The notes beneath the pieces are model-generated. The model was not told the DNA's origin. It worked only from the letters and a program-made list of their open reading frames with translations, and searched no databases. A stretch of DNA of 64,000 nt from an uncultured Thermoplasmatales archaeon (GTDB lineage: Archaea; Thermoplasmatota; E2; UBA202; DSCA01): assembly GCA_964514975.1 (NCBI GenBank), contig CAZESS010000003.1, positions 1 through 64,000 on the forward strand, written 5' to 3'. Both the position numbers and the translations under genes were made by a program. This document shows positions 39,417-54,552 of the stretch, piece by piece (position 1 is the first letter of the stretch; each line of letters begins with the position of its first letter).

Positions 39417-40279
39417 TGTGTCACCTCCGCCTTTCCGTCGGGGTCAACGTGCACCGTGGTCTGCCGGTTGGCCCAGCACTGCGGGACGATGCCCACCGGG
39501 AATGATGCAGGATGGCGATGCGCATATTCTATTTTGACGTCCATGACGGTGGTGGCACCGCCGACGCCCATGGGGCCGACGCCGAGCCGGTTGATTTTTT
39601 CCAGCAGTTCTTCTTCCATCGCTGCTACCTGTTGCTCGGGATGTCGCTGGCCGACGGGGCGGAGCAGTGCCTTTTTGGCGAGTTCGAGAGCCAGGTCGGA
39701 GCCGCCGCCGAGGCCGATGCCGATGATGGTCGGGGGGCAGGCTTTGCCCTCCATGGCCGCGACGTGTTCGAGCACGATTTCTTTGACGCCTTTGATGCCC
39801 CGCCCGGGTGTCATCATGACGAGCTTGCTCATGTTTTCGCTGCCGCCGCCCTTTGGGATGACGTGGATGGTCGCCTCGTCGCCGTCGACGATATCCCAGT
39901 GGATGACAGGAACGTGGCGGCCGGTGTTGTCGTTGCTGTTTTCGTGGGTGATGGGATCGACTGCGTTGGGGCGGAGGGGCACTTCTTTGGTGGCTCGTCG
40001 GACCGCGCCGGTTATCGTGTTGCGGAGCTGGCCGAGCAGGGGGAAGTCGCTGCCCGCCTGGATGAAAAAGGTCGGGGTTCCGGTGTCCTGGCAGATTGGC
40101 CTGCTTTCCTCTCTGCCGACGTCGATGTTTTCGAGGATGGCGTTGAGCTGCACCCTGGATGCATCGCTTGTTTCGGTGTCGACCGCTGCCCTGAGCCGCT
40201 CCTGCGTTTCTGGGGTCACGCTGGTGACGGCCTGCTTGATGGCCGCAACAAGCTGGTTTTCGAGCGATGTGTTGCTCAT
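39413..40279 (-). CDS. Fe-S fumarate hydratase class I, alpha subunit
   Basis: PICQDTG, KGGGSEN, ACPP, HPAS and QCWA.R motifs; TATA at 40307-40315. Confidence 0.88.
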   Translation of the reverse strand: MSNTSLENQLVAAIKQAVTSVTPETQERLRAAVDTETSDASRVQLNAILENIDVGREESRPICQDTGTPTFFIQAGSDFPLLGQLRNTITGAVRRATKEVPLRPNAVDPITHENSNDNTGRHVPVIHWDIVDGDEATIHVIPKGGGSENMSKLVMMTPGRGIKGVKEIVLEHVAAMEGKACPPTIIGIGLGGGSDLALELAKKALLRPVGQRHPEQQVAAMEEELLEKINRLGVGPMGVGGATTVMDVKIEYAHRHPASFPVGIVPQCWANRQTTVHVDPDGKAEVTQ

Positions 40280-40373
40280 GCTATCAGCGCTGGAAGCCGG
40301 TATGGCCATATAAACATTTGGCCCTCGGCGTGGCTGGATGGCCGCAGCGTGAACGAGTCGCCGAAAAACGCAA

Positions 40374-40524
40374 TTTTTATATATCATTAAGATTTATATC
40401 GTAAAAAATAACAAAAAACCGGCAATATTTGGATATATTGTTAAATATATATTATTTTTTTAACCTTTTAATCAATTATCCCGCCGTTTGTATACGAACA
40501 CGTCACACGAATAGTATTTATATC
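40374..40524. promoter_or_regulatory. AT-rich divergent control region between the fumarase and hdrA operons
   Basis: Very AT-rich; shares AATAA.AAAAAAC.G..AATA...ATAT.TTGTTAAA with 33983-34022; TATA at ~40515-40523. Confidence 0.55.
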
Positions 40525-40574
40525 ACCTTTGACATGAGAGCAACACGTTTCCCAATCGCACCCGCATGAATACC

Positions 40575-43574
40575 ATGAAAAAAGATGTTTTAGTCATCGG
40601 CGGAGGGATCACCGGCGTGCAGACAGCGCTGGATTTGGCCGATAAAGGATACGAGGTTGTTATCGTCGACCGGAAGCCGTCCATCGGCGGCAACATGGTC
40701 AAGCTCGACAAAACGTTCCCCACCAACGACTGCTCCATCTGCATCTCGGCGCCCAAGATGGTGGAGACCAGCCGGCACGAAAACATCGACCTGCTCACCT
40801 ACTCCGAGGTCAAGGAGGTCAAGGGCAACGCCGGCGGCTTCGAGGTCACCATCTGGAAGCGCACGAAATACGTCGACCCCGGCGAGTGCACGGGATGTGG
40901 CGACTGCGAGGAGGCTTGTCCGGTCGAGGTGCCCAACGAGTTCGATGAATCGCTGTCCAGCCGGAAGGCCATCTACGTCGAATACCCGCAGTCCGTCCCG
41001 CTCACATACACCATTGACTACGAAAACTGCGTGGGCTGCGGCGCCTGCGAGCGCGTCTGCGACGCAGGGGCCATCCAGTTCCTCGAAAAATCAGAGGAAT
41101 ACCACATAGAAGTGGGCAGCATCGTCGTCGCAACGGGCTTCGAGATGATGGAGCCCGACGTCTGGCGGGAGGAATACGGCTACGGCGAATACGACGACGT
41201 GGTCACCGCGCTGGAATACGAGCGCCTGCTGTCTTCGTCGGGACCCACGGAGGGCACGGTCAGGAAGCCATCCGACGGTGAGGAACCCGAAAGCGTGGCA
41301 TGGATACAGTGCGTGGGCTCCCGCTGCAAGCAGAAGGGCATGCCGTATTGCTCCAGGGTGTGCTGCATGTACGCCACCAAGGAAGCATCGATTACCGTGG
41401 GGGACAACCCCGACATCGAGACATATATTCATTACATGGATTTGCGCGCGTATGGCAAGGACTTCCAGCAATACTACGACCAGGCGAAAAAGAAAGGCGT
41501 GACCTACCTACGGGGCCGGCCGTCCCGCGTGTACAAAACCGGGGAGAACAAGCTCGCCGTCGAGTACGAGGACACGGAGCGCGGCGAGGTGACCACCAAC
41601 GAGGTCGACATGGTCGTGCTCTCCGCAGCAATCGTTCCCGCCTCGGGCAACCGGCAGCTCGCCGACATTTTGGGCGTCGAACTCGACGAAAACGGCTTCT
41701 TCAAGTCACGGGACAGCCTGACGGCACCCATGGAGTCGACCCGCGATGGTATCTACCTGGCCGGCTGCTCACAGTCCCCCAAGGACATCCCGGACAGCGT
41801 CGCGCAGGGCAGCGGCGCCGCAGCCAGGGCGCTCATGCCCATCAGGAACCGTCCCCGGAAGGGCCGGCCGGAGAAGCCCGCAGAGCGCGACGTCTCCGGG
41901 GAGGAACCCCGCATCGGCGTGTTCGTCTGCCACTGCGGGAAAAACATCGCCAACTACCTGGATGTGCCGGGTGTGGCCGACGCGGTGAAAAACATGCCCA
42001 ACGTTGTCCACGTTGACGATACCATGTTCGCCTGCTCCGAGGACGCCCAGGCCAAAATAAAGGATGCCATCAAGGAGCATGGGCTCAACCGTATCGTGGT
42101 CGCGGCCTGCTCGCCGCGCACCCATGCCAACCTGTTCCAGGACACCATGGAAGAGATGGGGCTCAACCGCTACCTGTTCGAGATGGCCAACATCCGCAAC
42201 CAGTGCAGCTGGGTTCACAGCGACGATGCAGAGCGGGCGACCGAGAAAGCCAAGCTGCTCACCAAAATGGCCGTGGCGAAAGCGGCGCGGCTGGCAGCAT
42301 TGCAGGAACACGAGATAGACGTCGGCGACCACACGCTCGTTGTCGGCGGCGGCCCGGCGGGCATGCAGACCTCTTTGAGCCTGGCCCGGGCGGGGCAGCA
42401 TGTCACCCTGGTTGAACGCGAAGATGAGCTCGGCGGCAAGCTGCTCAGGCTTAACACGCTCTTCCCGACAGATATCAATGCGCGGGAGCTGGCCGAGCGG
42501 CTGGCACGCGACGTCATGGACGAGGAAAACATCACGGTTATGACCTCCGCCGAGATACAGGATGTGGAGGGCTACATCGGCAACTACGAGGTCTCCATCG
42601 ACGGCGAGATACATCATTTTGATACCATCGTCCTGGCCACGGGCTTCCAGGAAATCGACCCGGGCGAGTGGTACGGCTACGACGGCGAGCGGGTGATGAC
42701 GCAGCTCGAGCTCGACGAAGCGCTGGCCAGAGATGACCTGGAAGACCCTGAAACCGTTGTTTTCATCAACTGCGTCGGCGCCATGGAGGAGGAACGTCCC
42801 TGGTGCTGCCGGGTTGGCTGCGGCAACTCGCTGAAGAACGCCAAGGCCGTCAAGCAGCGCTACCCCGATGCAGACGTCTACATTTTGTACAAGGACCTGC
42901 GGGTCTTCGGCAAGGACGAGGAGGAATACTACATGGAGGTCGAGGGCGAAGACGGCGTTATCTTCCTTCGCTATTCCACCGATAACAAGCCCGTGGTGAC
43001 CCATGAGGACGGAAAGCTGCACGTTGCGGTGCATGACAACCTGCTGGACGACGACGTGGAAATCGATGCTAACTACGTCGTCCTGGCCATGCAGTTGCAG
43101 GGCGACAGCAGCGCTGCCAGGCTCAAAAAGATGCTGAAGGTCTCGGCTGACCCTGCCGGCTTTTTCATGGAAGCGCATGCCAAGCTCCGGCCGCTTGAGT
43201 TTCCATCTGAGGGCGTCTATCTGGCCGGCGGTGCTCATTACCCCAAGAACGTGGCGGACATGTTCGCGCAGGCGGACGGCGCTGCTTCGAAGGCGGCTAT
43301 CCCCATGATGCGGGGCTACGCGCGGAGCGAGGGCATCATCGCCGAGATAGACAGCGACGTCTGCTCGGGCTGCAAGATGTGCATCGCCGTCTGCCCCTAT
43401 GGCGCCATCGATTTCAACGAGGAGGACGGCGTCGCCGAGGTCACCGACGTGTTGTGCAAGGGCTGCGGCTCCTGCGCCTCGGTCTGCCCCGTCGGTGCTA
43501 TCACCCAGAAGGGCTACGAGGACGACCAGTTGACGGCGATGATAAAAACGGCGCTGCTCGAGGGGGTGGCCTGA
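40575..43574 (+). CDS. hdrA: Heterodisulfide reductase subunit A-like flavoprotein, large form with two FAD domains
   Basis: GGGITG, DKTFPTNDC, 2x[4Fe-4S], CVGSR..CSRVCC, PKDIP, internal RIGVFVCHCG, second GGGPAG domain and a C-terminal ferredoxin. Confidence 0.93.
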   Translation: MKKDVLVIGGGITGVQTALDLADKGYEVVIVDRKPSIGGNMVKLDKTFPTNDCSICISAPKMVETSRHENIDLLTYSEVKEVKGNAGGFEVTIWKRTKYVDPGECTGCGDCEEACPVEVPNEFDESLSSRKAIYVEYPQSVPLTYTIDYENCVGCGACERVCDAGAIQFLEKSEEYHIEVGSIVVATGFEMMEPDVWREEYGYGEYDDVVTALEYERLLSSSGPTEGTVRKPSDGEEPESVAWIQCVGSRCKQKGMPYCSRVCCMYATKEASITVGDNPDIETYIHYMDLRAYGKDFQQYYDQAKKKGVTYLRGRPSRVYKTGENKLAVEYEDTERGEVTTNEVDMVVLSAAIVPASGNRQLADILGVELDENGFFKSRDSLTAPMESTRDGIYLAGCSQSPKDIPDSVAQGSGAAARALMPIRNRPRKGRPEKPAERDVSGEEPRIGVFVCHCGKNIANYLDVPGVADAVKNMPNVVHVDDTMFACSEDAQAKIKDAIKEHGLNRIVVAACSPRTHANLFQDTMEEMGLNRYLFEMANIRNQCSWVHSDDAERATEKAKLLTKMAVAKAARLAALQEHEIDVGDHTLVVGGGPAGMQTSLSLARAGQHVTLVEREDELGGKLLRLNTLFPTDINARELAERLARDVMDEENITVMTSAEIQDVEGYIGNYEVSIDGEIHHFDTIVLATGFQEIDPGEWYGYDGERVMTQLELDEALARDDLEDPETVVFINCVGAMEEERPWCCRVGCGNSLKNAKAVKQRYPDADVYILYKDLRVFGKDEEEYYMEVEGEDGVIFLRYSTDNKPVVTHEDGKLHVAVHDNLLDDDVEIDANYVVLAMQLQGDSSAARLKKMLKVSADPAGFFMEAHAKLRPLEFPSEGVYLAGGAHYPKNVADMFAQADGAASKAAIPMMRGYARSEGIIAEIDSDVCSGCKMCIAVCPYGAIDFNEEDGVAEVTDVLCKGCGSCASVCPVGAITQKGYEDDQLTAMIKTALLEGVA

Positions 43575-43996
43575 TGGCGGATTTTGAGCCACGCATCATC
43601 GCGTTTCTGTGCAACTGGTGCAGCTATGCGGGCGCAGACCTGGCGGGCGTGAACCGGCAGCAGTATCCATCCAACATTTTGAATATCAAGGTTATGTGTT
43701 CGTCGCGGGTGTCCCCGGAGCACGTGTTTGAGGCGCTGCAGGACGGCGCCGACGGCGTGCTCATCGCTGGATGCCATCCCGGCGACTGTCATTACATCGA
43801 CGGCAACTACAAGACCGTCAGAAAGGTCGACCTGCTGCACCGGATGCTCGAGGACATGGGCATCAATCCGCGGCGGCTCCGCCTGGAATGGATTTCGTCG
43901 GCGGAGGGCGGCAAGTTTGCAGAGGTGATGCAGGCGATGACCGACGACATCCTGGAGCTGGGTCCGCTCGACCTTGAAGGGGAGGTGTCTGAATGA
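43574..43996 (+). CDS. mvhD: [2Fe-2S] adaptor subunit MvhD
   Basis: FLCNWCSYAGAD, MCSSRV and GCHPGDCHY motifs. Confidence 0.95.
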   Translation: MADFEPRIIAFLCNWCSYAGADLAGVNRQQYPSNILNIKVMCSSRVSPEHVFEALQDGADGVLIAGCHPGDCHYIDGNYKTVRKVDLLHRMLEDMGINPRRLRLEWISSAEGGKFAEVMQAMTDDILELGPLDLEGEVSE

Positions 43997-44958
43997 GCAA
44001 GGCGAAGATTGGGTTTTACTGGTGCGGTGCCTGCGGCGGTTGCGAAATCGCCGTGCTGGACATCGATGAGATGCTGCTCGACGTGGCCGAACAGGCGGAC
44101 ATCGTGTTCTGGCCATGCGCAATGGACCCAAAGTATGAGGACCTGAAGAAGATGGAGGACGACAGCATCGACTTCATGTTCATCAACGGCTCCGTCCGGA
44201 ACGAGGAAAACCGCGAGATGGTCCGGTTGCTGCGGCGCAAAGCCAAGAACATCGTGGCCTTCGGCTCCTGCAGCAGCATCGGCGGGCTCTTCGGGCTCGG
44301 CAACCTGTATACGAAGGAGCAATTGCTGGATACGGCCTATCATACCCGGTCGACCGACGGAGACGTGACGCCGCAAAAAGAAAGCCAGGTCGACGAGGGC
44401 ACGCTAGAGCTGCCCGATTTGCTGCATCACGTGGTCCGGCTGGACGAGGTCATCGACGTCGACTACTACATCCCCGGCTGCCCGCCATTGCCCAACCAGC
44501 TTGAGGAAGCCTTTCCGGCGCTGCTGGACGGCAGCGCAGAGAAATATGATTTTATCTCACGGAAAAGCGTCTGCGACGTATGCCCGCTGGAGCGGGAGGA
44601 GAAGCGCATCAAGCGGCTCCGGCCCATCCAGGAGGTCGAGCTGGACCCCGACCGATGCATCCTGGACCAGGGTGTACTCTGCATGGGCCCCGCGACGGCG
44701 GGCATGTGCGAGGCGGCCTGCCCCTCGGTCGGCTATCCCTGCATCGGCTGCAACGGCCCCGTCCGCGGTGTGAAGGACCAGGGAGCTCGGATGGCCTCCG
44801 CCCTTGCATCGGTCATCGGCATCGAGGGCGAGGGGCGCAAGACCGAGGAGGAAATCCGGGAGGCGATGGCGTCGGTGCTGGACCCCACGGGCGCGTTTTA
44901 CCGGTTTTCGCTGCCCAGCAGCATGCTTCGCTACCGGCGAGGTGATATAGATGACTGA
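43993..44958 (+). CDS. mvhG: [NiFe]-hydrogenase small subunit (group 3c)
   Basis: CGGC, GSC, PGCPP, CDVC, CMGP.T..MC...CP and CIGC motifs. Confidence 0.92.
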   Translation: MSKAKIGFYWCGACGGCEIAVLDIDEMLLDVAEQADIVFWPCAMDPKYEDLKKMEDDSIDFMFINGSVRNEENREMVRLLRRKAKNIVAFGSCSSIGGLFGLGNLYTKEQLLDTAYHTRSTDGDVTPQKESQVDEGTLELPDLLHHVVRLDEVIDVDYYIPGCPPLPNQLEEAFPALLDGSAEKYDFISRKSVCDVCPLEREEKRIKRLRPIQEVELDPDRCILDQGVLCMGPATAGMCEAACPSVGYPCIGCNGPVRGVKDQGARMASALASVIGIEGEGRKTEEEIREAMASVLDPTGAFYRFSLPSSMLRYRRGDIDD

Positions 44959-46408
44959 AAAAATAACGATTGACCCGATAACCAGACTGGAGGGCCACGG
45001 CAAAATCGAGATATTTCTCGACGACGACAGGGAGGTCGAAAACGCCTACCTGCAGGTCCCCGAGTTCAAGGGCTTCGAGCAGTTCTGCCGCGGCAGGCGA
45101 GCCGAGGACATGCCCACGATAACGAGCCGCATCTGCGGCGTCTGCCCCGTCGCTCACCATTTAGCATCCACCAAGGCGCTCGACGACGCCTTCAATGTCA
45201 CGCCGCCCGAGCCGGCCGTGAAGCTCCGGGAGTTGTTCTACAACGCCTACATCTACGCGGACCATCTCCTTCACTTTTACTACCTGGCCAGCCCGGATTT
45301 CATCGTTGGCGTGGACGCGCCGCGGGAGACCCGGAACATCCTGGGTGTCATCGAACAGGTCGGCCTGGACATCGGCAAAAAGGTCATCCGGCAGCGGGGC
45401 AACGGGCAGCGCATCATCAGGATGCTCGGCGGCAAAGCCGTGCATCCGTCGTTCGGCATCGCCGGCGGCGTGAGTAAATCATTGTCAGATGAGGAGCGCA
45501 CCGAGGTGGTCAAGCTGGCGGACGGCATGGTCGACTTCGCTTCGTTTACGCTCGACGTGTTCAAGGAGCAGGTGCTCGCCAACTACGAGGACGTCATCAC
45601 TGCAGATGCGCTGGAAACGTACAGCATGGGGCTCACCGAGGACGGCAACGTCAGCCACACCGGCGGCGTGGTCAACGTGGTCGACCCTGACGGCAGCGAC
45701 TTCGCGTCGTTCAGCGGCCTGGATTACATGGACGTCATCCGGGAGCACGTGGAACCGTGGAGCTACATGAAGTTCCCCTATCTAAAGGAGGTCGGCTGGC
45801 AGGGCTTCACCGACGGCCCGGACAGCGGCGTCTACCGCGTCGGTCCGCTCGGACGGCTCAACGCGGCCCGGGGCATGAAAACAGAGCTGGCACAACAGCA
45901 CTACGACGAGATGTACGAGACGCTCGGACGGCCGGTACATTCAACGCTGGCCTACCACTGGGCCCGCCTGATAGAGGTCATGCAGTCCGCGGAGCTCATC
46001 CGGCAGCTTGCACACGATGAAGCGCTGGAAAGCGACGACATCCGCGCCGAGGTCGGCGAGCCCGGCAACGGCGTCGGCATCGTCGAAGCCGCCCGGGGCA
46101 CCCTCATCCACGACTACGAGCTCAACGAAAAGGGGCTGATGGAAAACGTCAACCTCATCGTCGCGACGGTGCACAACGCCGCCCCGATATCGATGAGTGT
46201 CAGAGATGCTGCCCGGAAATACGTGGACGGCGGCGACGTCAAGCCCGGCATGCTGAACAGCGTCGAGCGGGCCTTCCGCGCCTACGACCCCTGCCTTGCC
46301 TGTGCAACGCACTCGCTCACCGGGGAGACACCGCTCAAAATCAACATCTATGACACAAATCACAGGAAGATACGGGAGGTCAGCCAGAACCTGGGAGGTA
46401 CACCATGA
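44951..46408 (+). CDS. mvhA: [NiFe]-hydrogenase large subunit (group 3c)
   Basis: TRLEGH, L1 RICGVC, EAARG.L.H and L2 YDPCLACATH followed by a C-terminal extension. Confidence 0.95.
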   Translation: MTEKITIDPITRLEGHGKIEIFLDDDREVENAYLQVPEFKGFEQFCRGRRAEDMPTITSRICGVCPVAHHLASTKALDDAFNVTPPEPAVKLRELFYNAYIYADHLLHFYYLASPDFIVGVDAPRETRNILGVIEQVGLDIGKKVIRQRGNGQRIIRMLGGKAVHPSFGIAGGVSKSLSDEERTEVVKLADGMVDFASFTLDVFKEQVLANYEDVITADALETYSMGLTEDGNVSHTGGVVNVVDPDGSDFASFSGLDYMDVIREHVEPWSYMKFPYLKEVGWQGFTDGPDSGVYRVGPLGRLNAARGMKTELAQQHYDEMYETLGRPVHSTLAYHWARLIEVMQSAELIRQLAHDEALESDDIRAEVGEPGNGVGIVEAARGTLIHDYELNEKGLMENVNLIVATVHNAAPISMSVRDAARKYVDGGDVKPGMLNSVERAFRAYDPCLACATHSLTGETPLKINIYDTNHRKIREVSQNLGGTP

Positions 46409-46800
46409 AGGTCAGGCGCGGAGCAAAGGAGCGCGCCTTCATAGACAAGGTGGAGGAGCTCTCCGAGCAGTCGGTCAACGCCTGCATCAGGTGCGGCACC
46501 TGCTCGGCCGGCTGCCCCTTCGTGCAGGACATGGACGAGCTGCCCGAGCGGATTTTCAAACGCATCATCCTCGGCGACACGGAGGGCATCCTCAAGCAGA
46601 ACACGATGTGGATATGTGCCGCCTGCTACACCTGCAGCGTGCGCTGCCCCCGGGACATCGACATCGCCAAGATTATGGAGGCCGTCCGGCAGACCGTGCT
46701 CAGGGAAAATGTCGACATGGTGGACGTGGAACACGTCGAACATATCAAGGACCTGCCACAGCTGGCCGTGGTGGGCTGCTTCAGGAAGGAGACGGGATAA
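46405..46800 (+). CDS. hdrC: Heterodisulfide reductase subunit C-like 2x[4Fe-4S] protein
   Basis: CIRCGTCSAGCP and WICAACYTCSVRCP motifs. Confidence 0.9.
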   Translation: MKVRRGAKERAFIDKVEELSEQSVNACIRCGTCSAGCPFVQDMDELPERIFKRIILGDTEGILKQNTMWICAACYTCSVRCPRDIDIAKIMEAVRQTVLRENVDMVDVEHVEHIKDLPQLAVVGCFRKETG

Positions 46801-46801
46801 C

Positions 46802-47653
46802 ATGGACGGCTACCTCTACTACCCGGGCTGCACCCTGAAGACCAAGGCGTCCGACTACGAGGAGAGCGCCATGGCAGTCATGGAGGCGCTCGACACGCCG
46901 TTGATGGAGATGGACGACTGGTACTGCTGCGGCGCCGTCCAAAGCCTGACGGCGGACGACATCATGCACCAGATTGCGCCCATCCGGACGCTCATCTGCG
47001 CGCAGGAACAAAACGAGCGGCAAGTGGTAACGCTCTGCGACATGTGCTACAACGTGCTGAAGCGTGCCAACCTGTGGATGCGGGAGCATCCCGATGACCT
47101 GGAGACGATGAACGAGTTCCTCGACGAGGACCCCGACTACGAGGGGAACGTCGAGGTCTACCACCTGTTCGAGATTCTGCGGGAGCGAAAGGATGACGTC
47201 AAAAAGCGGGTGAAACACAAGCTGGATGGCCTGACCGTCGCTCCCTATTACGGCTGCATGCTGCTCCGCCCGAGCGAGGTCGCCATCGACGACACCGAGA
47301 ACCCCAGCATTATGGAAGGATTGCTGGAAAACATCGGCGCCGACGTGCTCGACAACCCCAAGCGGACCGAGTGCTGTGGCTCCTACCACGTCGTCAACCG
47401 ACCGGACATCGTGGAGCGGCGCATTGAAGAGCTGGTGTCGCGCATGGGCGAGATGGGCGCCGACGTCATCGCGCTGTCCTGCCCGCTCTGCCAGTACAAT
47501 CTTGATTCCTATCAGCGCTCGACGGGATACGACATCCCCGTGTTGTATCTCACCGAGCTCATCGCGCTGGCCTTCGGACTGGAGGCCGGCCTGCACAAGC
47601 ATCGGGTTGACCCCGGCATTATGTTAAAAGAACGAGGTGTTTTGGAGAGATAA
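46802..47653 (+). CDS. hdrB: Heterodisulfide reductase subunit B-like (two CCG domains)
   Basis: YYPGC..CCG..CDMC and YYGC..CCG..CPLC motifs. Confidence 0.92.
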   Translation: MDGYLYYPGCTLKTKASDYEESAMAVMEALDTPLMEMDDWYCCGAVQSLTADDIMHQIAPIRTLICAQEQNERQVVTLCDMCYNVLKRANLWMREHPDDLETMNEFLDEDPDYEGNVEVYHLFEILRERKDDVKKRVKHKLDGLTVAPYYGCMLLRPSEVAIDDTENPSIMEGLLENIGADVLDNPKRTECCGSYHVVNRPDIVERRIEELVSRMGEMGADVIALSCPLCQYNLDSYQRSTGYDIPVLYLTELIALAFGLEAGLHKHRVDPGIMLKERGVLER

Positions 47654-47654
47654 T

Positions 47655-48353
47655 ATGGGAGAAAAAGAAGAGCAGGAGATGATCGAGATATACGTGATGG
47701 GCAAAAAATACGAGGTGCCCAAGGGCCTCACCATCATGACCGCGCTGGAATATGCGGGCTACAAGTTCACCCGTGGCTGCGGCTGCCGCGGCGGGTTCTG
47801 CGGCGCCTGTCCAACGGTGTACCGGAAAAAGGATGACTACAAGCTCCGGATGGACCTGGCCTGCCAGACCGCGGTGGAGGACGGCATGTACCTGGTGCAG
47901 CTGCCCTTTGTGCCCGCGGTGCGCGAGGAATACGACCTGGAGGAGATGGACCCGGCAGACAATGACAACATCCTGCTGGAATACTATCCCGCCATCGCCC
48001 GGTGCGTGTCCTGTAACACGTGCACCAAGTCGTGTCCGCAGGAGCTCGAGGTCATGGATTTCGTGCAGGCCGCCCTGCGCGGCGACGTGCAGCGCTGCGC
48101 CGAGCTGTCGTTCGACTGCATCCAGTGCGGATTGTGCAGCATGCGCTGCCCCGCCGACATCAAGCACTATCATCTGGCACAGCTGGCCCGGCGCATCTAC
48201 GGCCGCTATCAGCAGGACAAGAGCGACACGCTCACGAAGCGTGTTGAGGAGGTCGAAAAGGGCGCGTATGACGAGGAGCTGCAAAAGCTGGTCGAGATGG
48301 ACGAGGAATCACTGAAAGAGCGCTATGAGAAGCGCGACATCACGGAGGGATAA
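47655..48353 (+). CDS. Fumarate reductase Fe-S subunit (FrdB/TfrB-like, no CCG domains)
   Basis: [2Fe-2S] motif GCRGGFCGAC...LACQ plus two CxxCxxCxxxCP motifs. Confidence 0.8.
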   Translation: MGEKEEQEMIEIYVMGKKYEVPKGLTIMTALEYAGYKFTRGCGCRGGFCGACPTVYRKKDDYKLRMDLACQTAVEDGMYLVQLPFVPAVREEYDLEEMDPADNDNILLEYYPAIARCVSCNTCTKSCPQELEVMDFVQAALRGDVQRCAELSFDCIQCGLCSMRCPADIKHYHLAQLARRIYGRYQQDKSDTLTKRVEEVEKGAYDEELQKLVEMDEESLKERYEKRDITEG

Positions 48354-48356
48354 ATC

Positions 48357-50009
48357 ATGAGCGAAGGCTACCCCGAGTATATGAAAAAATCTATCGAAAA
48401 GGTCGAGGCGACCCGCGCGCAGCGCGTCGAGGAGACCTATGAGCGGATGAACCTGGATGAGGCGGACGAGGTGCTCAACAACTATCATCCCGACTATCGC
48501 CCCGAGGGCAAGCGGGAGATACCCGTGGGCCCGAGCAAGGGCGAAAAAGCGCCGATGGAGTTCGTGGAGCAGCTCCTGGCCCGGGGGCTCGTCTCGCCGG
48601 AGGACATCGACCTCGGCACCATCGACTACGACGTCGATATCCTGATTATCGGCGGCGGCGGGGCCGGCACCGTCGCAGCATTATGGGCCGTCCGTGAGGG
48701 CATCACGCCCGAAAATATTCTCATTTCGACGAAGCTCCGCCATGGCGATGCGAACAGCATGATGGCGCAGGGCGGCATCCAGGCCGCCGACAAGGAGGAC
48801 GACTCGCCCGTCAAGCATTATCTCGACGCCATCGGCGGTGGGCATTTCACCAACAAACCGGAGCTCGTCAAAGCGCTGACCATGGACGCCCCCGAAATCA
48901 TCCGGTGGCACGAGAAGCTCGGCGTCATGTACGACCGGGAAAAAGACGGCGACTTCGTCGAGCTGCCCGGCGGCGGCACCTCCCGCTTCCGGCTGCATGC
49001 GGCCGGCGACTACACCGGTATGGAGCTGATGCGGGTCATCCGTGACGAAGCACGCAACATGGACATCCCGGTGCTCGAGTTCACGCCGGCGATCGAGCTG
49101 CTGAAGGACGACAACGGCAACGTGGCCGGGGCGCTGCTCATGAACCTGGAAACCAATGAATACTACGTGGTCCGGGCAAAGTCGACCATCATGGCGACCG
49201 GCGGCTTCGGACGATTGCACATCCAGTCGTATCCGACGACCAATCATTACGGGGCGACGGCGGACGGCCTCATCATGGGCTACCGCGCCGGCGTACCCCT
49301 GCGGGACATGGACTCGGTGCAGTATCATCCCACCGGCGCCGCATACCCGGAGCAAATCGTCGGGCTGCTGGTGACCGAAAAGGTCAGGAGTCTGGGAGCC
49401 CAGCCGGTGAACCGCGATGGGGAGCTCTTCGTCAATCCGCTGGAGCCCCGCGACGTCGAAGCCGCCTCGATCATCCGGGAATGCTACGGCCGGGACAACG
49501 GCGTGGAGACGCTGACCGGCATGAAGGGCGTCTGGCTGGACTCGCCGCTCATCGAGGAGAAAAAAGGCGAGGGTACAATCGAAAAACGGCTGCCCGCCAT
49601 GGTCAGGCAGTACCAGCGGTTCGGCATCGACATCACCGAGCAGCCCATCCTCGTGTTTCCGACGCTGCACTACCAGAACGGCGGGCTGGTCATCAATCCC
49701 GATGGCTCGACGCCCGTCAAAGGCCTCTACGCCGGCGGCGAGGTCAGCGGCGGCGTCCACGGCAAAAACCGGCTGATGGGTAACTCGTTGCTCGACTACA
49801 ACGTCTTCGGCAGGCGGGCGGGTGTCGCCGCGGCGCGGCATGCCAAAAAAGCGTCCGTCGGCACGCTCACGCTTGACCACATCACCACATATGAAAAACA
49901 GCTTCGCGAGGCGGGTGTCGACATCGAGCGGAGGGCGCCGCTGCTGCTGCCCGAATACCGCGGCAAAAAAGTGCTGGAGCGGCACCTCGACGTCGAGGTC
50001 ACGCTGTAG
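48357..50009 (+). CDS. Soluble fumarate reductase flavoprotein (TfrA/FrdA-like)
   Basis: GGGGAG, NSMMAQGG, QYHPT, TEKVR, PRD, HYQNGG and HGKNRLMGNSL catalytic set. Confidence 0.82.
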   Translation: MSEGYPEYMKKSIEKVEATRAQRVEETYERMNLDEADEVLNNYHPDYRPEGKREIPVGPSKGEKAPMEFVEQLLARGLVSPEDIDLGTIDYDVDILIIGGGGAGTVAALWAVREGITPENILISTKLRHGDANSMMAQGGIQAADKEDDSPVKHYLDAIGGGHFTNKPELVKALTMDAPEIIRWHEKLGVMYDREKDGDFVELPGGGTSRFRLHAAGDYTGMELMRVIRDEARNMDIPVLEFTPAIELLKDDNGNVAGALLMNLETNEYYVVRAKSTIMATGGFGRLHIQSYPTTNHYGATADGLIMGYRAGVPLRDMDSVQYHPTGAAYPEQIVGLLVTEKVRSLGAQPVNRDGELFVNPLEPRDVEAASIIRECYGRDNGVETLTGMKGVWLDSPLIEEKKGEGTIEKRLPAMVRQYQRFGIDITEQPILVFPTLHYQNGGLVINPDGSTPVKGLYAGGEVSGGVHGKNRLMGNSLLDYNVFGRRAGVAAARHAKKASVGTLTLDHITTYEKQLREAGVDIERRAPLLLPEYRGKKVLERHLDVEVTL

Positions 50010-50020
50010 GGTGGACCAGG

Positions 50021-50236
50021 ATGATAGAAGTAAACGAGACATACTGCAAGGGCTGCAACCTCTGCATCGAGTTCTGCCCCAGAGATGCGCTGGAGCCAGC
50101 CGAGGAAATCAACGAAAAAGGCGTGCATCCACCCGTCGAGGTGGAGGGCAGATGCAACAACTGCCGGCTCTGCGAGCAGATATGCCCCGACTTCGCCATC
50201 GTCATCATAGAGGACGAGGAGGAAAACGATGAATGA
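50021..50236 (+). CDS. korD: 2-oxoacid:ferredoxin oxidoreductase delta (ferredoxin) subunit
   Basis: CKGCNLCIEFCP and CNNCRLCEQICPDFAI motifs. Confidence 0.88.
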   Translation: MIEVNETYCKGCNLCIEFCPRDALEPAEEINEKGVHPPVEVEGRCNNCRLCEQICPDFAIVIIEDEEENDE

Positions 50237-51383
50237 AGATTTCAAGCGAGCGAAAAAGGTCATCGGGTCATCCAAGCAGTTCATACATGGCGACACGGCC
50301 GTGTCATACGGCGCGTTGCTGGCCGGCTGCCGGTTTTTCGGCGGCTACCCCATCACACCTGCGTCGGAAATCGCGGAGCAGATGTCACGGCTGCTGCCCA
50401 GGGTGGGAGGCACCTACATCCAGATGGAGGACGAGCTGGCGAGCATCGCCGCCGTCATCGGCTCATCATGGACAGGCGCCAAAGCCATGACCGCCACCTC
50501 GGGCCCCGGCTTCTCGCTGATGCAGGAAAACCTGGGCTTCGCGGCCATGTCAGAGACACCATTGGTGCTGGCCAACGTGCAGCGCTCCGGCCCCTCGACG
50601 GGGCAGCCGACGCTGGGTGCGCAGGGAGACATGATGCAGGCCCGGTACGGCAGCCACGGCGACTACCATCCCATCGTGCTGTCCCCGAACACCATTCAAG
50701 AAACATTGGAGCTGACCATCCGGTCGTTCAACCTGGCGGAGGAATACCGCTGTCCCGTCTTCCTGATGATATGCGCCGACCTCGGCCACATGCGGGAGAT
50801 GGTCGAGATACCGCAGCAGGTCGACCTCTTCGAGCGCAAAAAGCCGAAGGTACCGCGCGATGAATACGTGCCCTTCGGCGAAGGCACCTATGGCAAAAAA
50901 AAGGTGCCCGAGATGGCGACCTTCGGCACCGGCTACCATACCTATGTAACGGGGCTAACCCACGACGAGATGGGCTTCCCGGCCACCGACGACCAGGAGG
51001 ACCACGATCGGTTGATACGGCGGCAGATAGAAAAAATCACCGACGACAGGGAAGCACTGACAGACATCGAGATGCGGAACATCGACGACGCCGACGTCGC
51101 CATCGTATCATACGGCATCGCCAGCCGGAGCGCGCTGGAGGCGATGCGGAAGGCCCGCGAGCAGGGCAAAAAGGTCGGCTATTTCAGGCTCAGGACCATC
51201 TGGCCGTTTCCCAGCCACGCCATCGAGAAGCTGTCCGGGCAGGTTGACCGGATCGTGGTCGCGGAGATGAACCTCGGCCAGCTGTACCACAAGGTAAACG
51301 AGTATGCCAGCTGCCCGGTAACGCTGGCCAGCAAAATCGGCGGGGAGATCCATACCCCGAACGAAATCCTCGCGGAGGTATAA
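50229..51383 (+). CDS. korA: 2-oxoglutarate:ferredoxin oxidoreductase alpha subunit
   Basis: YPITPASE, QMEDE, TSGPG.SLMQE and QRSGPSTG.PT motifs. Confidence 0.88.
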   Translation: MNEDFKRAKKVIGSSKQFIHGDTAVSYGALLAGCRFFGGYPITPASEIAEQMSRLLPRVGGTYIQMEDELASIAAVIGSSWTGAKAMTATSGPGFSLMQENLGFAAMSETPLVLANVQRSGPSTGQPTLGAQGDMMQARYGSHGDYHPIVLSPNTIQETLELTIRSFNLAEEYRCPVFLMICADLGHMREMVEIPQQVDLFERKKPKVPRDEYVPFGEGTYGKKKVPEMATFGTGYHTYVTGLTHDEMGFPATDDQEDHDRLIRRQIEKITDDREALTDIEMRNIDDADVAIVSYGIASRSALEAMRKAREQGKKVGYFRLRTIWPFPSHAIEKLSGQVDRIVVAEMNLGQLYHKVNEYASCPVTLASKIGGEIHTPNEILAEV

Positions 51384-51385
51384 CA

Positions 51386-52252
51386 ATGGAACAGGATAGC
51401 GTGGACGTGATAGACGGCAAAAAAATACAGGAAAAATATCTGCGCGAAGAGATGATGCCCACCATCTTCTGCGACGGCTGCGGCATCGGCAATGTGCTGG
51501 ACTACACCCTGTGGGCGCTCGAGCGGGAAAACATCGACATGGACAACACCGTGTTCCTGTCCGGTATCGGCTGCTCATCCCGGCTGCCCGGCTACGTCGA
51601 CGTCGACGCACTGCACACCACGCACGGCCGGGCGCTGGCCTTCGCCACCGGGGTCAAGCTGACCAACCCCGACCTGCACGTGGTGGTGTTCACCGGTGAC
51701 GGCGACGGCATCGGCATCGGCGGCAACCATTTCATCCACGCCTGCCGGCGCAACCTTGATGTTACCGTGGTCTGCGTCAACAACTTCATCTACGGTATGA
51801 CCGGCGGGCAGGTGGCCCCGACGACGCCCGAGTCCAGGAAGGCGACGACGGCGCCCTATGGCAACATCGAGCCGCCGTTCGACATGAGCAAGATGGCGAT
51901 AGCGTCGGGCGCATCCTATGTCGCCCGGTGGCCGATAAACAAGCCCTCGATGCCCATCAACTCCATCCGTGAGGGGCTCAGGAATCAAGGCTTCAGCTTC
52001 ATAGAGATGCTGTCGCCCTGCCCGACCGCCTTCGGACGGCGGAACAAGTTCCGGAAGATAGAAGAGATGTGGGGATGGTACGCCGAGCACACCATGCTCA
52101 TCGAGGACTACGAAATGATACAGAAATACGGCAGCGAGGAGGAAAAAGCCCGGCTGCGGGACATCATCACCATGGGCGTCCTCCACCGGGAGGACAAGCT
52201 CCCGTTGAACCAGCGCATCAAGCGGCTCATCGCGGAGGTGATGGAAAAATGA
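51386..52252 (+). CDS. korB: 2-oxoglutarate:ferredoxin oxidoreductase beta (TPP) subunit
   Basis: CDGCG, GIGCS, HTTHGRA and GDGD...NN.IYGMTGGQ motifs. Confidence 0.88.
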   Translation: MEQDSVDVIDGKKIQEKYLREEMMPTIFCDGCGIGNVLDYTLWALERENIDMDNTVFLSGIGCSSRLPGYVDVDALHTTHGRALAFATGVKLTNPDLHVVVFTGDGDGIGIGGNHFIHACRRNLDVTVVCVNNFIYGMTGGQVAPTTPESRKATTAPYGNIEPPFDMSKMAIASGASYVARWPINKPSMPINSIREGLRNQGFSFIEMLSPCPTAFGRRNKFRKIEEMWGWYAEHTMLIEDYEMIQKYGSEEEKARLRDIITMGVLHREDKLPLNQRIKRLIAEVMEK

Positions 52253-52779
52253 GAATCAACCTTCGACTGTGCGGCAAGGGCGGCCAGGGCATCATGCTCT
52301 CCGGCTACATCCTGGGCAAGGCCGCCAGCGTGTTCCACGACTACAACGCGGTGCAGACCCAGAGCTACGGCCCCGAGGCGAGGGGCGGCGCCGCACGCTC
52401 CGAGGTCATCATCGCCGACGAGGAAATCGGGTACTGCGGCATCGAAGCCGCGGATGGCATGATGGTGCTGTCGCAGGAGGCGTACACCAAGTACAGCGAC
52501 GACCTCAAGGAGGACTGCATCGTGGTCGCCGATCCCGACCTGGTGAAAAGCATCGAGCACGGCAACGTCGTCCCCGTGCCGGGCACCCGCATCGCCGAGG
52601 ATCTCGGCAACAAGATCGTGGCGAACATCGTCATGCTCGGCGCGTTCAACCAGGCCGGCGCGTTCGTGCCCCAGAAGGCGCTGGAGCAGGCGGTGGAGGA
52701 CAGCGTGCCATCGCGCTTCACCGAGCTCAACCTCAAGGCGTTGAACGAAGGCATCCGGCGGGCGAAGGAACAGGAATAG
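52249..52779 (+). CDS. korC: 2-oxoacid:ferredoxin oxidoreductase gamma subunit
   Basis: G.GGQG, QSYGPEARGG and NIVMLGA motifs. Confidence 0.88.
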   Translation: MRINLRLCGKGGQGIMLSGYILGKAASVFHDYNAVQTQSYGPEARGGAARSEVIIADEEIGYCGIEAADGMMVLSQEAYTKYSDDLKEDCIVVADPDLVKSIEHGNVVPVPGTRIAEDLGNKIVANIVMLGAFNQAGAFVPQKALEQAVEDSVPSRFTELNLKALNEGIRRAKEQE

Positions 52780-52780
52780 C

Positions 52781-52794
52781 TTTTCCTCTTTTTT
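52781..52794 (+). terminator. Oligo-T terminator ending the hdrA-kor operon
   Basis: TTTTCCTCTTTTTT right after the stop. Confidence 0.6.
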
Positions 52795-52889
52795 GGTTAT
52801 CCGGCCGGACATGTGGTTATCCCACGGTTTCGTCTATCTTCCGGAGATGTTTCGTCCGTGTTATAACGAAAAGAAGAAGGGGAAGAGAG

Positions 52890-53093
52890 CTACCATTCCT
52901 GGCCGCTTCGCTGCCGCATGTCTTCGCCGGGAGCGTCATCGTCGTCGTAGGGATTGTTGTTGTTTTCCTCATAGTGGTCGTCTTCGCCGTTGGTGTTGTG
53001 GTTGTGGTCCTGGGAGTTCGCCACCACCGGGGCAACGATTGCCGCAGCGAGGATAACGCAGGCCACCGCTGCCACCAAAATGCGGGTTTTCAT
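52890..53093 (-). CDS. Small secreted Asn/Asp/His-rich peptide
   Basis: Signal peptide (MKTR + hydrophobic helix) followed by NSQDHNHNTNGEDDHYEENNNNPYDDDD; pyrimidine terminator at 52868-52889. Confidence 0.6.
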   Translation of the reverse strand: MKTRILVAAVACVILAAAIVAPVVANSQDHNHNTNGEDDHYEENNNNPYDDDDAPGEDMRQRSGQEW

Positions 53094-53199: not shown

Positions 53200-54552
53200 A
53201 TGTCCGAGAAAAAGGTCACCAAGGAGGAATTGTTGGAGAAAGCGAAGGAGCCCGCCAAGAAAGCCATGAAATGGCATCCATTCTATCGGGGAAAAATCGA
53301 GGTGGCTCCCAAGGTGCAGGTGAAAAGCTTCGACGACTTCGGCGTCTGGTACACGCCCGGAGTCGCGGAGCCATGCCGGGACATCCACCAGAATCCGGAC
53401 AAGGTCTACGAGCATACCAACAAGTGGAACAACGTGGCGGTGGTCAGCGACGGCAGCAGGGTGCTCGGCCTGGGCGACATCGGCCCCATGGCGGGCATGC
53501 CCGTCATGGAGGGCAAGGGCCTGCTGTTCAAGTATCTGGGCGGCGTCGACGCGTTCCCCATCTGCCTGGATGCGCATGACCCGGAGGACATCGTGCAGGC
53601 GACCAAGTGGATAGCGCCGTCGTTCGGCGGCATCAACCTGGAGGACATCTCGAAGCCCAAGTGCTTTTACGTGCTGGAGCGGCTGCGGGAGGAGCTCGAC
53701 ATCCCGGTATGGCATGACGACCAGCAGGGCACCGCCGCTATCACGCTGGCCGGCATCATCAACGGGCTCAAGGTCGTCGGCAAAAAGCTCGAGGATGTGG
53801 ACATCGGCCTGGTGGGCAGCGGCGCCGCCAACCTGTGCCTCGCCCGCACATTGCTCAAAGCCGGCGTGCCCGCCAAACATCTCTGGCTGGCCGACTCGAC
53901 CGGTCTGCTCCACCCGGGGCGGGATGACCTCAGCCCGGAAAAAGACCCGGAGAAATACAAGTTCGCCCAGAAAACCAACCTCGAGCAAAAGGAGGGTGGA
54001 CTCCCCGAGCTCATCGCCGGCAAGGACGTCGTCGTCGCCGCGTCGAAACCAGGCCCGGACACCATCAAAAAGGAATGGCTTCGGCGCATGAACGACGACG
54101 CCATTTTGTTCGCCGAGGCCAACCCCATCCCCGAGATATGGCCCTGGGAAGCGAAAGAGGCAGGCGTCCGCATCGTGGGCACCGGCCGCTCGGATTTCCC
54201 CAACCAGGTCAACAACTCCATCGGCTTTCCCGGTATCTTCCGCGGCGCCCTCGACGTCCGCGCCAAAACCATATCCGACGAGATGCACATCGAGGCAGCC
54301 TATGCAATCGCCGAGGTCGCCGAGGAGGCAGGGCTCGACGAGGAACATCTCGTGCCGACGATGGAGAACACCGAGGTCTACATCCGGCAGGCCGTCCGCG
54401 TCGCCCTCAAGGCCATCGAGCAGGGCCTCGCCCGGGTCAAGCTCAGCGAGCAGGAGCTCCGAGAAAAAGCCGAAGCGATCATCATGTCAAGCCGCAAGAA
54501 AACGCAGCACATGATGGAGGCTGGCTACATCGAGGACGCCCCGCCGCTGTGA
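53200..54552 (+). CDS. Malic enzyme (NAD(P)-dependent, decarboxylating)
   Basis: YTPGVA, VLGLGDIG, MEGK, INLEDI, HDDQQGTA and TGRSDFPNQVNN motifs. Confidence 0.93.
   Translation: MSEKKVTKEELLEKAKEPAKKAMKWHPFYRGKIEVAPKVQVKSFDDFGVWYTPGVAEPCRDIHQNPDKVYEHTNKWNNVAVVSDGSRVLGLGDIGPMAGMPVMEGKGLLFKYLGGVDAFPICLDAHDPEDIVQATKWIAPSFGGINLEDISKPKCFYVLERLREELDIPVWHDDQQGTAAITLAGIINGLKVVGKKLEDVDIGLVGSGAANLCLARTLLKAGVPAKHLWLADSTGLLHPGRDDLSPEKDPEKYKFAQKTNLEQKEGGLPELIAGKDVVVAASKPGPDTIKKEWLRRMNDDAILFAEANPIPEIWPWEAKEAGVRIVGTGRSDFPNQVNNSIGFPGIFRGALDVRAKTISDEMHIEAAYAIAEVAEEAGLDEEHLVPTMENTEVYIRQAVRVALKAIEQGLARVKLSEQELREKAEAIIMSSRKKTQHMMEAGYIEDAPPL

Follow-up and report, generated by a model that had tools for sequence, protein, structure and literature searches.

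Introduction

Among the closest known systems to the genes reported here are the MvhADG-HdrABC complex of methanogens (PDB 5odc, 8rvu), the soluble fumarate reductase TfrAB of Methanothermobacter and the NADH-linked Flx-Hdr-tfrAB-kor gene clusters of bacteria. Mvh-Hdr also occurs in many archaea and bacteria that are not methanogens and have no heterodisulfide of coenzymes M and B (CoM-S-S-CoB), and for its acceptor in these organisms the operon that we describe offers a testable candidate, namely fumarate. The operon occupies positions 40566-52779 of the + strand of a 64,000-nucleotide stretch of DNA from an uncultured Thermoplasmatales archaeon (assembly GCA_964514975.1, contig CAZESS010000003.1, positions 1 to 64,000), which was analysed as a whole and is called the window below. 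It encodes a [NiFe] hydrogenase, a heterodisulfide reductase (Hdr), an iron-sulfur (Fe-S) subunit, a fumarate-reductase-type flavoprotein and a 2-oxoacid:ferredoxin oxidoreductase (KOR).

A bifurcating Hdr complex that feeds both a soluble fumarate reductase and a 2-oxoglutarate:ferredoxin oxidoreductase, with kor genes interspersed, has been proposed for the Flx/NADH version in three papers (PMC6315080, PMC11636981, PMC7282089). Mitchell et al. (PMC11636981) give co-expression support for the cluster, except for tfrAB, and Koendjbiharie et al. (PMC7282089) describe in Pseudoclostridium thermosuccinogenes a 'succinate operon' made of fumarase, Flx-Hdr and fumarate reductase. Elsewhere, frdA/sdhA was reported beside hdrA and mvhD in Thiomargarita (PMC4914600), a preprint on HdrA shows STRING links between HdrA and Sdh flavoproteins, and papers on metagenome-assembled genomes (MAGs) of Asgard archaea, Culexarchaeia, WOR-3 and Thermoplasmatota list Tfr/Sdh and Mvh-Hdr separately. 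In Ca. Natronoplasma, a close relative of the host, the part played by the group 3c hydrogenase 'is not clear' according to one paper (PMC11287216). No paper on an H2-driven Mvh-Hdr-Frd-Kor operon, or on a biochemical test of either version, was found in the literature searched, subscription journals and supplements being outside its scope. The first-pass annotation, made by a model from the letters of the window, had named the operon a candidate bifurcating H2:fumarate/ferredoxin oxidoreductase and left its novelty to a search; the scheme itself turns out to be in print for NADH and Flx, the donor here being H2 through Mvh.

Proposed function of the operon

We propose, with a probability of about one half, that the 12 genes encode a soluble, bifurcating fumarate reductase driven by H2, which would supply reduced ferredoxin to KOR. 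MvhAG would oxidise H2, and MvhD would hand the electrons on to HdrA, a tandem (pseudo-dimeric) form, at whose FAD each pair would be split. The high-potential electron would pass through HdrC and the non-cubane clusters of HdrB to the dicluster and 2Fe-2S centres of the Fe-S subunit, and from there to the non-covalent FAD of the flavoprotein, where fumarate would be reduced to succinate, and no free thiol or disulfide would be needed in this branch. The low-potential electron would leave through the ferredoxin domains of HdrA to ferredoxin, which the co-transcribed KOR would spend, once reduced, on the carboxylation of succinyl-CoA to 2-oxoglutarate. The overall reaction would be 2 H2 + fumarate + Fd(ox) -> succinate + Fd(red), Fd being ferredoxin, and its single reduced ferredoxin per succinate would match the need of KOR; this 1:1 argument, made already in the first-pass annotation, is sound by analogy with Mvh-Hdr. 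The heterodisulfide couple lies near -140 mV. With an E0' of +33 mV (PMC5861303), the fumarate/succinate couple is more positive, which would make fumarate the better acceptor of the two.

The idea that HdrCB passes electrons to fumarate and that ferredoxin drives KOR was already part of the first-pass annotation. It has gained support from conserved synteny, from a sole set of hdr genes in the genome, from flanking tricarboxylic acid (TCA) cycle genes, from an invariant fumarate site and from docking; its functional part, that is, bifurcation, the reductive direction, fumarate and 2-oxoglutarate as substrates and a direct wire between HdrB and the reductase, is something that we infer. The two substrates are taken from the gene context because the models for the flavoprotein and KOR score below their cut-offs.

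Organization of the operon

In the open reading frame (ORF) listing of the window, 12 ORFs of the + strand fill the interval from 40566 to 52779 in the order tandem HdrA, MvhD, MvhG, MvhA, HdrC, HdrB, Fe-S protein, flavoprotein and KorDABG, and all 12 products were given family names by Pfam and NCBIfam profile searches. The successive junctions measure -1, -4, -8, -4, +1, +1, +3, +11, -8, +2 and -4 bases. A GGAGG/GAGG-like motif lies 5' of all 11 internal genes, and none lies 5' of hdrA. As judged from this arrangement, the 12 genes form one operon. All of its proteins are acidic (D+E > K+R), and none of the 12 contains a hydrophobic 19-residue window above 1.6 on the Kyte-Doolittle scale, the maximum being 1.56.

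The operon is preceded by an AT-rich divergent spacer of 178 nt (40388..40565) between fumA (- strand) and hdrA (+ strand), a putative promoter region with a TATA-like 'tttatata' about 40 nt 5' of the hdrA ATG. At the other end, an oligo-T tract of the + strand (cttttcctcttttttgg, 52780..52797) begins directly after the korG stop and contains a T6 run at 52789-52794; within the operon, T5 runs occur only twice, at 43161 and 50334. Archaeal transcription termination uses oligo-T, and the tract is likely to be an archaeal terminator. A scan for bacterial hairpin terminators, a method unsuited to an archaeon, gave no match at the operon end.

Much of this layout had been described in the first-pass annotation. 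Its 12 co-directional genes with overlapping or near-abutting ends are borne out (junctions of -8 to +11 bases), as are the lack of a membrane anchor among the proteins and the lack of CCG domains in the Fe-S subunit. Its single terminator at 52781 corresponds to the oligo-T tract and not to any hairpin found by the scan. Two details needed correction: the first ATG of hdrA is at 40566, the start formerly placed at 40575 being the in-frame Met4, and the near-abutting hdrB and Fe-S genes are separated by one base (hdrB ends at 47653, the Fe-S gene starts at 47655).

Hydrogenase and Hdr subunits

The first gene (40566..43574, + strand, like all genes of the operon) encodes a tandem HdrA of 1002 aa that scores 1048.7 bits with the NCBIfam HdrA2 model, below its cut-off of 1100. 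It consists of an FAD/TrxR domain with an inserted ferredoxin (residues 8 to about 430), an HdrA N-terminal domain (441-601), a second FAD domain and a C-terminal ferredoxin domain (853-999). PDB HdrA chain 8rvu_a aligns with it in three stretches (E 1.6e-209), and these show a permuted tandem, one chain holding two FAD domains. The tandem form of about 1000 aa was found at 16 of the 53 related loci having an HdrA match; one locus carries three such genes (L058) and another two (L026).

MvhD (43574..43996, 140 aa) reaches 180.6 bits with Pfam FlpD (cut-off 22.3). The [NiFe] hydrogenase small subunit MvhG (43993..44958, 321 aa) matches Pfam Oxidored_q6 and NCBIfam VhuG (214 bits, cut-off 450), and the large subunit MvhA (44951..46408, 485 aa) matches Pfam NiFeSe_Hases and NCBIfam VhuA (405 bits, cut-off 800) and shows RICGVC and DPCLAC motifs in its translation. 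They are followed by an HdrC-like protein of 131 aa with two 4Fe-4S motifs (46405..46800; NCBIfam HdrC 69 bits, cut-off 160), whose 8 Cys are invariant in 38 sequences, and by an HdrB-like protein of 283 aa with two Pfam CCG domains (46802..47653), whose ten CCG Cys are all invariant in 38 sequences. HdrB scores almost alike with the NCBIfam models for HdrB (142.8 bits, cut-off 345) and for SdhE of methylmenaquinol:fumarate reductase (MFR; 142 bits), both below cut-off, and its five PDB matches are all true HdrB chains, aligned over the full length with E values of 9e-31 to 2e-27.

The Fe-S subunit, the flavoprotein and KOR

The Fe-S subunit (47655..48353, 232 aa) combines a Fer2_4 (2Fe-2S) domain with an HdrC-like dicluster domain, and it carries two CxxCxxCxxxCP motifs. 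Its 4+8 Cys are invariant in 38 sequences, and both cubane motifs have four Cys, as in TfrB. No CCG domain was matched by Pfam. The protein is only distantly SdhB/TfrB-like, and in its dicluster part it is paralogous to HdrC (27% over 95 residues, E 1e-7). The NCBIfam TfrB model is covered in three pieces, namely at positions 18-85 by the 2Fe-2S part of the Fe-S protein, at 127-225 by HdrC and at 266-485 by HdrB, and by virtue of this piecewise cover TfrB serves as a natural fusion joining the three modules. A fusion search with the Fe-S subunit (459 candidates) gave no close CCG fusion. Two metagenomic proteins of 516-521 aa (P0121, P0122) have it fused to a FlxA-like FNR module (PF00175, PF00970, PF10418), which hints that some organisms have a simple soluble fumarate reductase dependent on NAD(P)H. 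A corresponding fusion search with the flavoprotein gave one odd protein of 1122 aa.

The flavoprotein (48357..50009, 550 aa) has its FAD_binding_2 domain at 94-478, preceded by a conserved N-terminal extension of 90 aa, as judged from the alignment. No Succ_DH_flav_C domain was matched by Pfam, and 72 residues remain after FAD_binding_2. Among NCBIfam models TfrA ranks best (343 bits), followed by Sdh/Frd (276) and NadB (265), the match to TfrA covering positions 6-426 of 546 only; the best PDB matches are SdhA and FrdA. In 81 flavoproteins the residues H324 (QYHPTG), T340-E341, R344, R365-D366 (PRD), H438 (HYQNGG) and R472 (HGKNRL) are invariant, and by alignment to SdhA the protein retains the residues of the fumarate site, namely a pair each of His and Arg together with the Thr-Glu hinge. 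HMMER placed R365 ambiguously; its probable assignment rests on its invariance and on the PRD motif, which we take to mark the dicarboxylate-site Arg.

The residue aligned with the FAD-linking His (SHT motif) of E. coli SdhA is N133, an Asn that is invariant in the 81 flavoproteins, and this argues for a non-covalently bound FAD. In E. coli FrdA, variants of His44 lose succinate oxidation and keep fumarate reduction. By analogy, a flavoprotein with non-covalent FAD would reduce fumarate and oxidise succinate poorly.

The last four genes encode KorD (50021-50236), KorA (50229-51383), KorB (51386-52252) and KorG (52249-52779). Together they make up a four-subunit 2-oxoacid:ferredoxin oxidoreductase, most like 2-oxoglutarate enzymes: KorA scores 544.5 bits with the general model PRK08659 (cut-off 411), and the 2-oxoglutarate-specific models give 363 bits for KorA (cut-off 579), 270 for KorB (cut-off 364) and 72 for KorD (cut-off 125), KorG being named by Pfam and NCBIfam. 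A specificity for 2-oxoglutarate is what we infer from the context of SucCD, Fum and Frd.

A predicted interface between HdrB and the Fe-S subunit

HdrC, HdrB and the Fe-S subunit were co-folded with an alignment of 38 rows for each chain, the Fe-S subunit being the scored partner. The complex scored 0.86 and the best of three controls 0.00; the score mark that we use is reached by 58 of 80 solved complexes and by 2 of 110 mismatched pairs. The runs share at least 95% of contacts, and the pLDDT of the partner is at least 79. The modelled interface involves residues 103-121, 138-144 and 166 of the Fe-S subunit, the region of its first 4Fe-4S motif, with the invariant C117, C120, N121, G143 and P166. 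On the side of HdrB it involves residues 9-15, 41-44 and 55-62 of the first CCG domain, including the invariant G9, C10, C42, G44 and R62, and HdrC contributes its C-terminal tail (108-130). This model, in which the Fe-S subunit docks on the first CCG domain, favours a direct cluster-to-cluster wire from HdrB to the fumarate reductase over a diffusible thiol.

Conserved synteny and exchange of the electron donor

A pattern scan of one genome per species gave at least 594 matches to the Fe-S/flavoprotein pair, of which at least 593 were confirmed, so that the pair occurs in at least 593 species genomes of Archaea and Bacteria. The 80 best loci out of these matches were kept, which makes them closest relatives and not a random sample; they come from Thermoplasmatota, Theionarchaea, Methanofastidiosum, Heimdall-, Bathy- and Culexarchaeota, Bipolaricaulota, Thermotogota, Chloroflexota, Bacillota, Spirochaetota and others. 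Neighbouring genes were counted by tblastn with the proteins of the window in a well-covered set of 38 of these 80 loci, which have at least 8 kb upstream and at least 3 kb downstream.

The Fe-S gene lies directly upstream of the flavoprotein gene at all 73 loci with at least 800 nt upstream, and the two are adjacent at all 38 well-covered loci. HdrB and HdrA are each present at 33 of the 38, HdrC at 32 and MvhD at 31, and at 24, from both domains, HdrB is directly upstream of the Fe-S gene. The donor varies: MvhA was found at 17 loci, FlxA at 6, both together at none and neither at 15. Loci without Mvh often have genes like FlxC, FlxB and FlxA in its place (Pfam on L021, L035 and L071). At five loci (L028, L029, L043, L064, L072) a FlxC/FrhB-like gene stands alone between mvhD and hdrC, hydrogenase and FlxA both being absent, and such clusters may represent a third donor type. 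KorA is present at 23 of the 38 loci, FumA at 9 and SucC at 6, and the combination of HdrA, HdrB, MvhA and KorA at 12. Where both korA and korG were found (31 loci), the kor genes are downstream in 16 cases, upstream in 10 and bracketing the Hdr-Mvh-Frd genes in 5.

On a FastTree phylogeny of the 81 flavoproteins, the Archaea/Bacteria label requires 7 changes, at least 4 of them being forced by well-supported branches, and the donor label requires 11; Heimdallarchaeota have both the Mvh and the Flx version. The cluster of L006, labelled Spirochaetaceae, is nearly identical to that of L005 from Thermoplasmatota (flavoprotein branches of 0.009 and 0.013), and its contig was probably binned to the wrong genome.

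HdrABC/MvhD and the Fe-S/flavoprotein pair thus form a constant core, with an exchangeable donor and with KOR as a frequent passenger. In both domains the neighbourhoods tie the pair to HdrABC/MvhD, often with Mvh and Kor. The first-pass annotation had foreseen that related Hdr-linked flavoprotein clusters may exist in anaerobic bacteria.

Distribution within the phylum

In a sample of 301 genomes of the phylum, including the host, the flavoprotein (E<=1e-100) was found in 48, MvhA (E<=1e-80) in 114 and McrA in 42, these being plain counts of genomes that are related and not independent. The flavoprotein never occurs together with McrA (0/301 genomes, 0/42 McrA-positive ones). It is present in 36 of the 73 genomes having MvhA and not McrA, and in 12 of the 186 having neither; of the 36 genomes that have flavoprotein and MvhA, 20 carry the two genes on the same contig, no more than about 10 kb apart. 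The pattern is a complementary one, Mvh-Hdr occurring with Mcr in methanogens and with the fumarate reductase in about half of the Mvh-bearing non-methanogens. The distribution is patchy even among close relatives: of three other genomes of the host's genus, one has the flavoprotein and MvhA (G292), and the other two have neither (G259, 92% complete; G298, 88% complete).

The host genome and the neighbouring genes

The host genome measures 1.96 Mb in 66 contigs and is 98.91% complete and 2.92% contaminated. Among the matches listed, the closest named relatives of the flavoprotein are from Thermoplasmata MAGs, Ca. Natronoplasma (81% identity) and Ca. Haladaptatiplasma (75%), and the host, an archaeon of salt lakes, is therefore a halophilic member of the Thermoplasmatota. 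By tblastn of the genome (E<=1e-5), HdrA, MvhD, HdrB, HdrC, the Fe-S subunit and the flavoprotein are each single copy and all within the operon, and two more distant [NiFe] hydrogenases and other 2-oxoacid oxidoreductases occur elsewhere; the genome also has a Complex1_49kDa/EchE-type gene. Neither mcrA nor ComA nor DsrC was found in this genome, and as to a supply of CoM-S-S-CoB the search covered mcrA and ComA, other CoM routes and the synthesis of CoB being outside it. The host is a non-methanogenic archaeon in which neither CoM nor CoB is expected. Two further CCG-domain Fe-S proteins are encoded, one beside a DAO-type, GlpA-like flavoenzyme (contig C28, L081) and one beside an FAD-oxidase, GlcD/Dld-like flavoenzyme (contig C19, L084).

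The operon sits within an island of TCA-cycle-related genes. On the - strand upstream are those for PEPCK (26309-27976), an IDH-like protein (28047-29243), CitF (29268-30821), CitE (30825-31739) and aconitase (32024-33940), followed by SucD (35403-36272, + strand) and by the two parts of a class I fumarase, FumB (38832-39416) and FumA (39413-40387), both on the - strand and divergent from the operon. Downstream, on the + strand, are malic enzyme (53200-54552) and SucC (54560-55657); a subtilase gene is also adjacent. The enzymes of the reductive branch, from phosphoenolpyruvate (PEP)/pyruvate to 2-oxoglutarate, are all encoded within 30 kb except malate dehydrogenase, and one Ldh/Mdh-family gene is on another contig (C10). 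The sucD and sucC genes are about 18 kb apart, one on each side of the operon, and not adjacent. Citrate synthase (PF00285) was not found in the host genome, and the content of PEPCK, IDH-like, CitF/CitE, aconitase, SucCD and malic enzyme genes would permit a complete reductive TCA cycle closed by citrate lyase or a citrate fermentation.

Between korG and the malic enzyme gene lies an ORF of 67 aa on the - strand (52890-53093), which may or may not be a gene; its N-terminus resembles a signal peptide, and its tail is very acidic and rich in Asn/Asp. Further downstream are genes for a Rad50/SbcC-like ATPase and an Mre11-like phosphoesterase (56337-59848, - strand), and the window also holds genes for PGK, TrkH, a PAS/GAF histidine kinase and a phosphate-type ABC transporter.

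Alternative explanations

Several observations weigh against the proposed H2-driven bifurcating fumarate reductase. The flavoprotein stays below every NCBIfam cut-off (343 bits for TfrA, against a required 718), and so do KorA, KorB and KorD with the 2-oxoglutarate-specific models. The docking score of 0.86 belongs to a model, and its calibration was on chain pairs with the tool's own alignments, here applied to three chains with supplied ones. HdrB retains all ten Cys of the disulfide-reducing site, which is equally expected if thiols and disulfides are still turned over. Nor does the pair always come with Hdr, for 4 of the 38 well-covered loci have no Hdr, Mvh or Kor gene within 10 kb, and the two FlxA-like NAD(P)H fusions among 459 Fe-S candidates suggest that some organisms use a route without bifurcation. 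In the phylum sample, 12 of the 48 flavoprotein-positive genomes have no MvhA at E<=1e-80. Conversely, the flavoprotein is missing from 37 of the 73 genomes with MvhA and without McrA; fumarate can therefore not be the general acceptor, and these genomes must use something else. Malic enzyme and peptidases beside the operon would also suit an oxidative route. In Endoriftia, tfrAB failed to co-vary with the other genes of the Flx-Hdr-Kor cluster (PMC11636981).

The retained Cys lead to the best of the alternatives, a split thiol:fumarate reductase in which HdrC, HdrB, the Fe-S subunit and the flavoprotein would oxidise a low-molecular-weight or protein thiol and HdrABC-Mvh would re-reduce the resulting disulfide with bifurcation, fumarate being the ultimate acceptor through a diffusible couple. 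Such an enzyme would account for the intact CCG Cys and for the fact that HdrB matches only true HdrB chains in the PDB, and it has a model in methanogen TfrB, the fused equivalent of the split module. TfrB uses CoM-SH and CoB-SH. The two further CCG proteins beside GlcD/Dld-like and GlpA-like flavoenzymes could feed the same pool. With one HdrB and one HdrC in the genome, however, a single site would have to both form and use up the disulfide; searches of the host genome gave no ComA, mcrA or DsrC, and the first 4Fe-4S region of the Fe-S subunit is modelled directly on the first CCG domain of HdrB, which leaves a thiol-mediated enzyme unlikely.

The 1:1 stoichiometry is valid in both directions, and the operon could also be read in reverse, as a confurcating system in which KOR oxidises 2-oxoglutarate in glutamate/peptide fermentation, reduced ferredoxin and succinate oxidation together evolve 2 H2, and carbon passes onward via fumarase and malic enzyme to pyruvate. 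The adjacent genes for malic enzyme, SucCD and a subtilase would suit this, the same oxidative route is drawn for Culexarchaeia (PMC9723716), and relatives are described as fermentative heterotrophs (PMC11287216). PEPCK and the divergent fumarase fit the reductive branch equally well, and an invariant Asn replaces the FAD-linking His in the flavoprotein. The reverse reaction would cost about +70 kJ/mol at standard conditions and need H2 below roughly 1e-6 atm, an estimate that takes +33 mV for fumarate/succinate, -414 mV for H2 and about -500 mV for ferredoxin, and we regard this direction as quite unlikely.

If the genes were merely co-regulated, Mvh-HdrABC would reduce some disulfide, the Fe-S/flavoprotein pair would be supplied by a different donor, for example ferredoxin or NAD(P)H, and KOR would act independently. 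Gene neighbourhood alone is weak evidence of binding, stand-alone Fe-S/flavoprotein pairs exist at 4 of 38 loci, and Fe-S subunits fused to a FlxA-like module are known from metagenomes. Yet hdrC-hdrB lies directly upstream of the Fe-S gene at 24 of 38 loci in both domains, the Hdr-Frd core persists as the donor module is swapped, the flavoprotein is never found with McrA (0/42 McrA-positive genomes of the phylum sample), and docking separates the modelled complex from its controls (0.86 against 0.00); co-regulation without a shared electron path is improbable. It is highly improbable that the flavoprotein is not a fumarate reductase at all, being instead an L-aspartate oxidase (NadB-like) or a reductase of another enoate, for although NadB models score close to Sdh/Frd (265 against 276 bits), NadB has the same active-site residues and the flavoprotein is below all cut-offs, the Fe-S partner gene is always adjacent (73/73), fumarase, SucCD and KOR recur in the neighbourhoods, and NadA (two copies) and L-aspartate dehydrogenase are encoded in the genome, so that NadB is not needed and we rejected this role.

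Implications

If the H2-driven bifurcating fumarate reductase is real, the Fe-S/flavoprotein pair reduces fumarate on HdrB, and the reduced ferredoxin is spent on the next carboxylation but one. This would explain how anaerobes without quinones carry out the fumarate step in the reductive TCA branch or cycle, how these organisms pay for the synthesis of 2-oxoglutarate, and the exchange of H2 and NAD(P)H donors around a constant Hdr-Frd core; it would also give HdrABC enzymes a second natural substrate class. A bolder form of the proposal would unite Mvh, Hdr, the fumarate reductase pair and KOR in one soluble super-assembly, with the non-cubane clusters of HdrB repurposed from disulfide chemistry to a pure electron relay and both outputs of bifurcation channelled, without free thiol and perhaps without free ferredoxin, into two reductive TCA steps. 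More broadly, fumarate would be the physiological acceptor, long sought, for the high-potential branch of Mvh/Flx-Hdr in a large part of the archaea and bacteria that are not methanogens; as a whole, we consider this form doubtful. The main value of the operon lies in a testable acceptor for Mvh-Hdr in non-methanogens and in a specific predicted interface between HdrB and the Fe-S subunit.

Comparison with known systems

The Flx-Hdr-tfrAB-kor clusters of the reductive TCA cycle in tubeworm symbionts and Thioflavicoccus, and the 'succinate operon' of P. thermosuccinogenes, follow the same proposed logic. The donor here is H2 via MvhAGD and not NADH via FlxABC, and the host is a non-methanogenic archaeon. 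The Hdr-Vhu-Fwd and Fdh-Hdr-Fmd super-assemblies of methanogens (PMC13518236) set a precedent, a bifurcating Hdr being wired directly in them to an enzyme that fixes CO2 and consumes ferredoxin, and PDB 7bkb and 9sw6, both Hdr super-assemblies, are among the structure matches of the operon proteins. In our operon the low-potential consumer would be KOR, reached via KorD, and there is no polyferredoxin gene; direct channelling from Hdr to KOR through KorD is speculation.

In the type E succinate:quinone reductases and the 8-methylmenaquinol:fumarate reductases (SdhE/MfrE), a CCG protein likewise partners an SdhAB-like pair, and SdhE and HdrB models score nearly the same with our HdrB (142 and 142.8 bits). 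These enzymes are membrane-associated and quinone-linked, whereas HdrA, MvhD and a hydrogenase are attached here and no hydrophobic segment is present. TfrAB of Methanothermobacter is closer, being a soluble fumarate reductase without membrane anchor, and TfrA is the best model for the flavoprotein. The differences are that the CCG part is a separate HdrB gene here, that an extra dicluster domain is present, and that the flavoprotein has a 90-aa N-terminal extension, no Succ_DH_flav_C match and a score far below 718.

With MvhADG-HdrABC of methanogens the operon shares all six subunit types, which are contiguous here, and the ten-Cys CCG of HdrB and the two 4Fe-4S ligand sets of HdrC are kept. 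Unlike in the methanogen complex, the subunits score below the NCBIfam equivalog cut-offs (HdrA2, HdrB, HdrC, VhuA, VhuG), the host is one in which mcrA and ComA were not found, HdrA is a tandem of 1002 aa, HdrC is short at 131 aa and, above all, hdrB is followed by the genes of a fumarate-reductase pair that is modelled on its first CCG domain.

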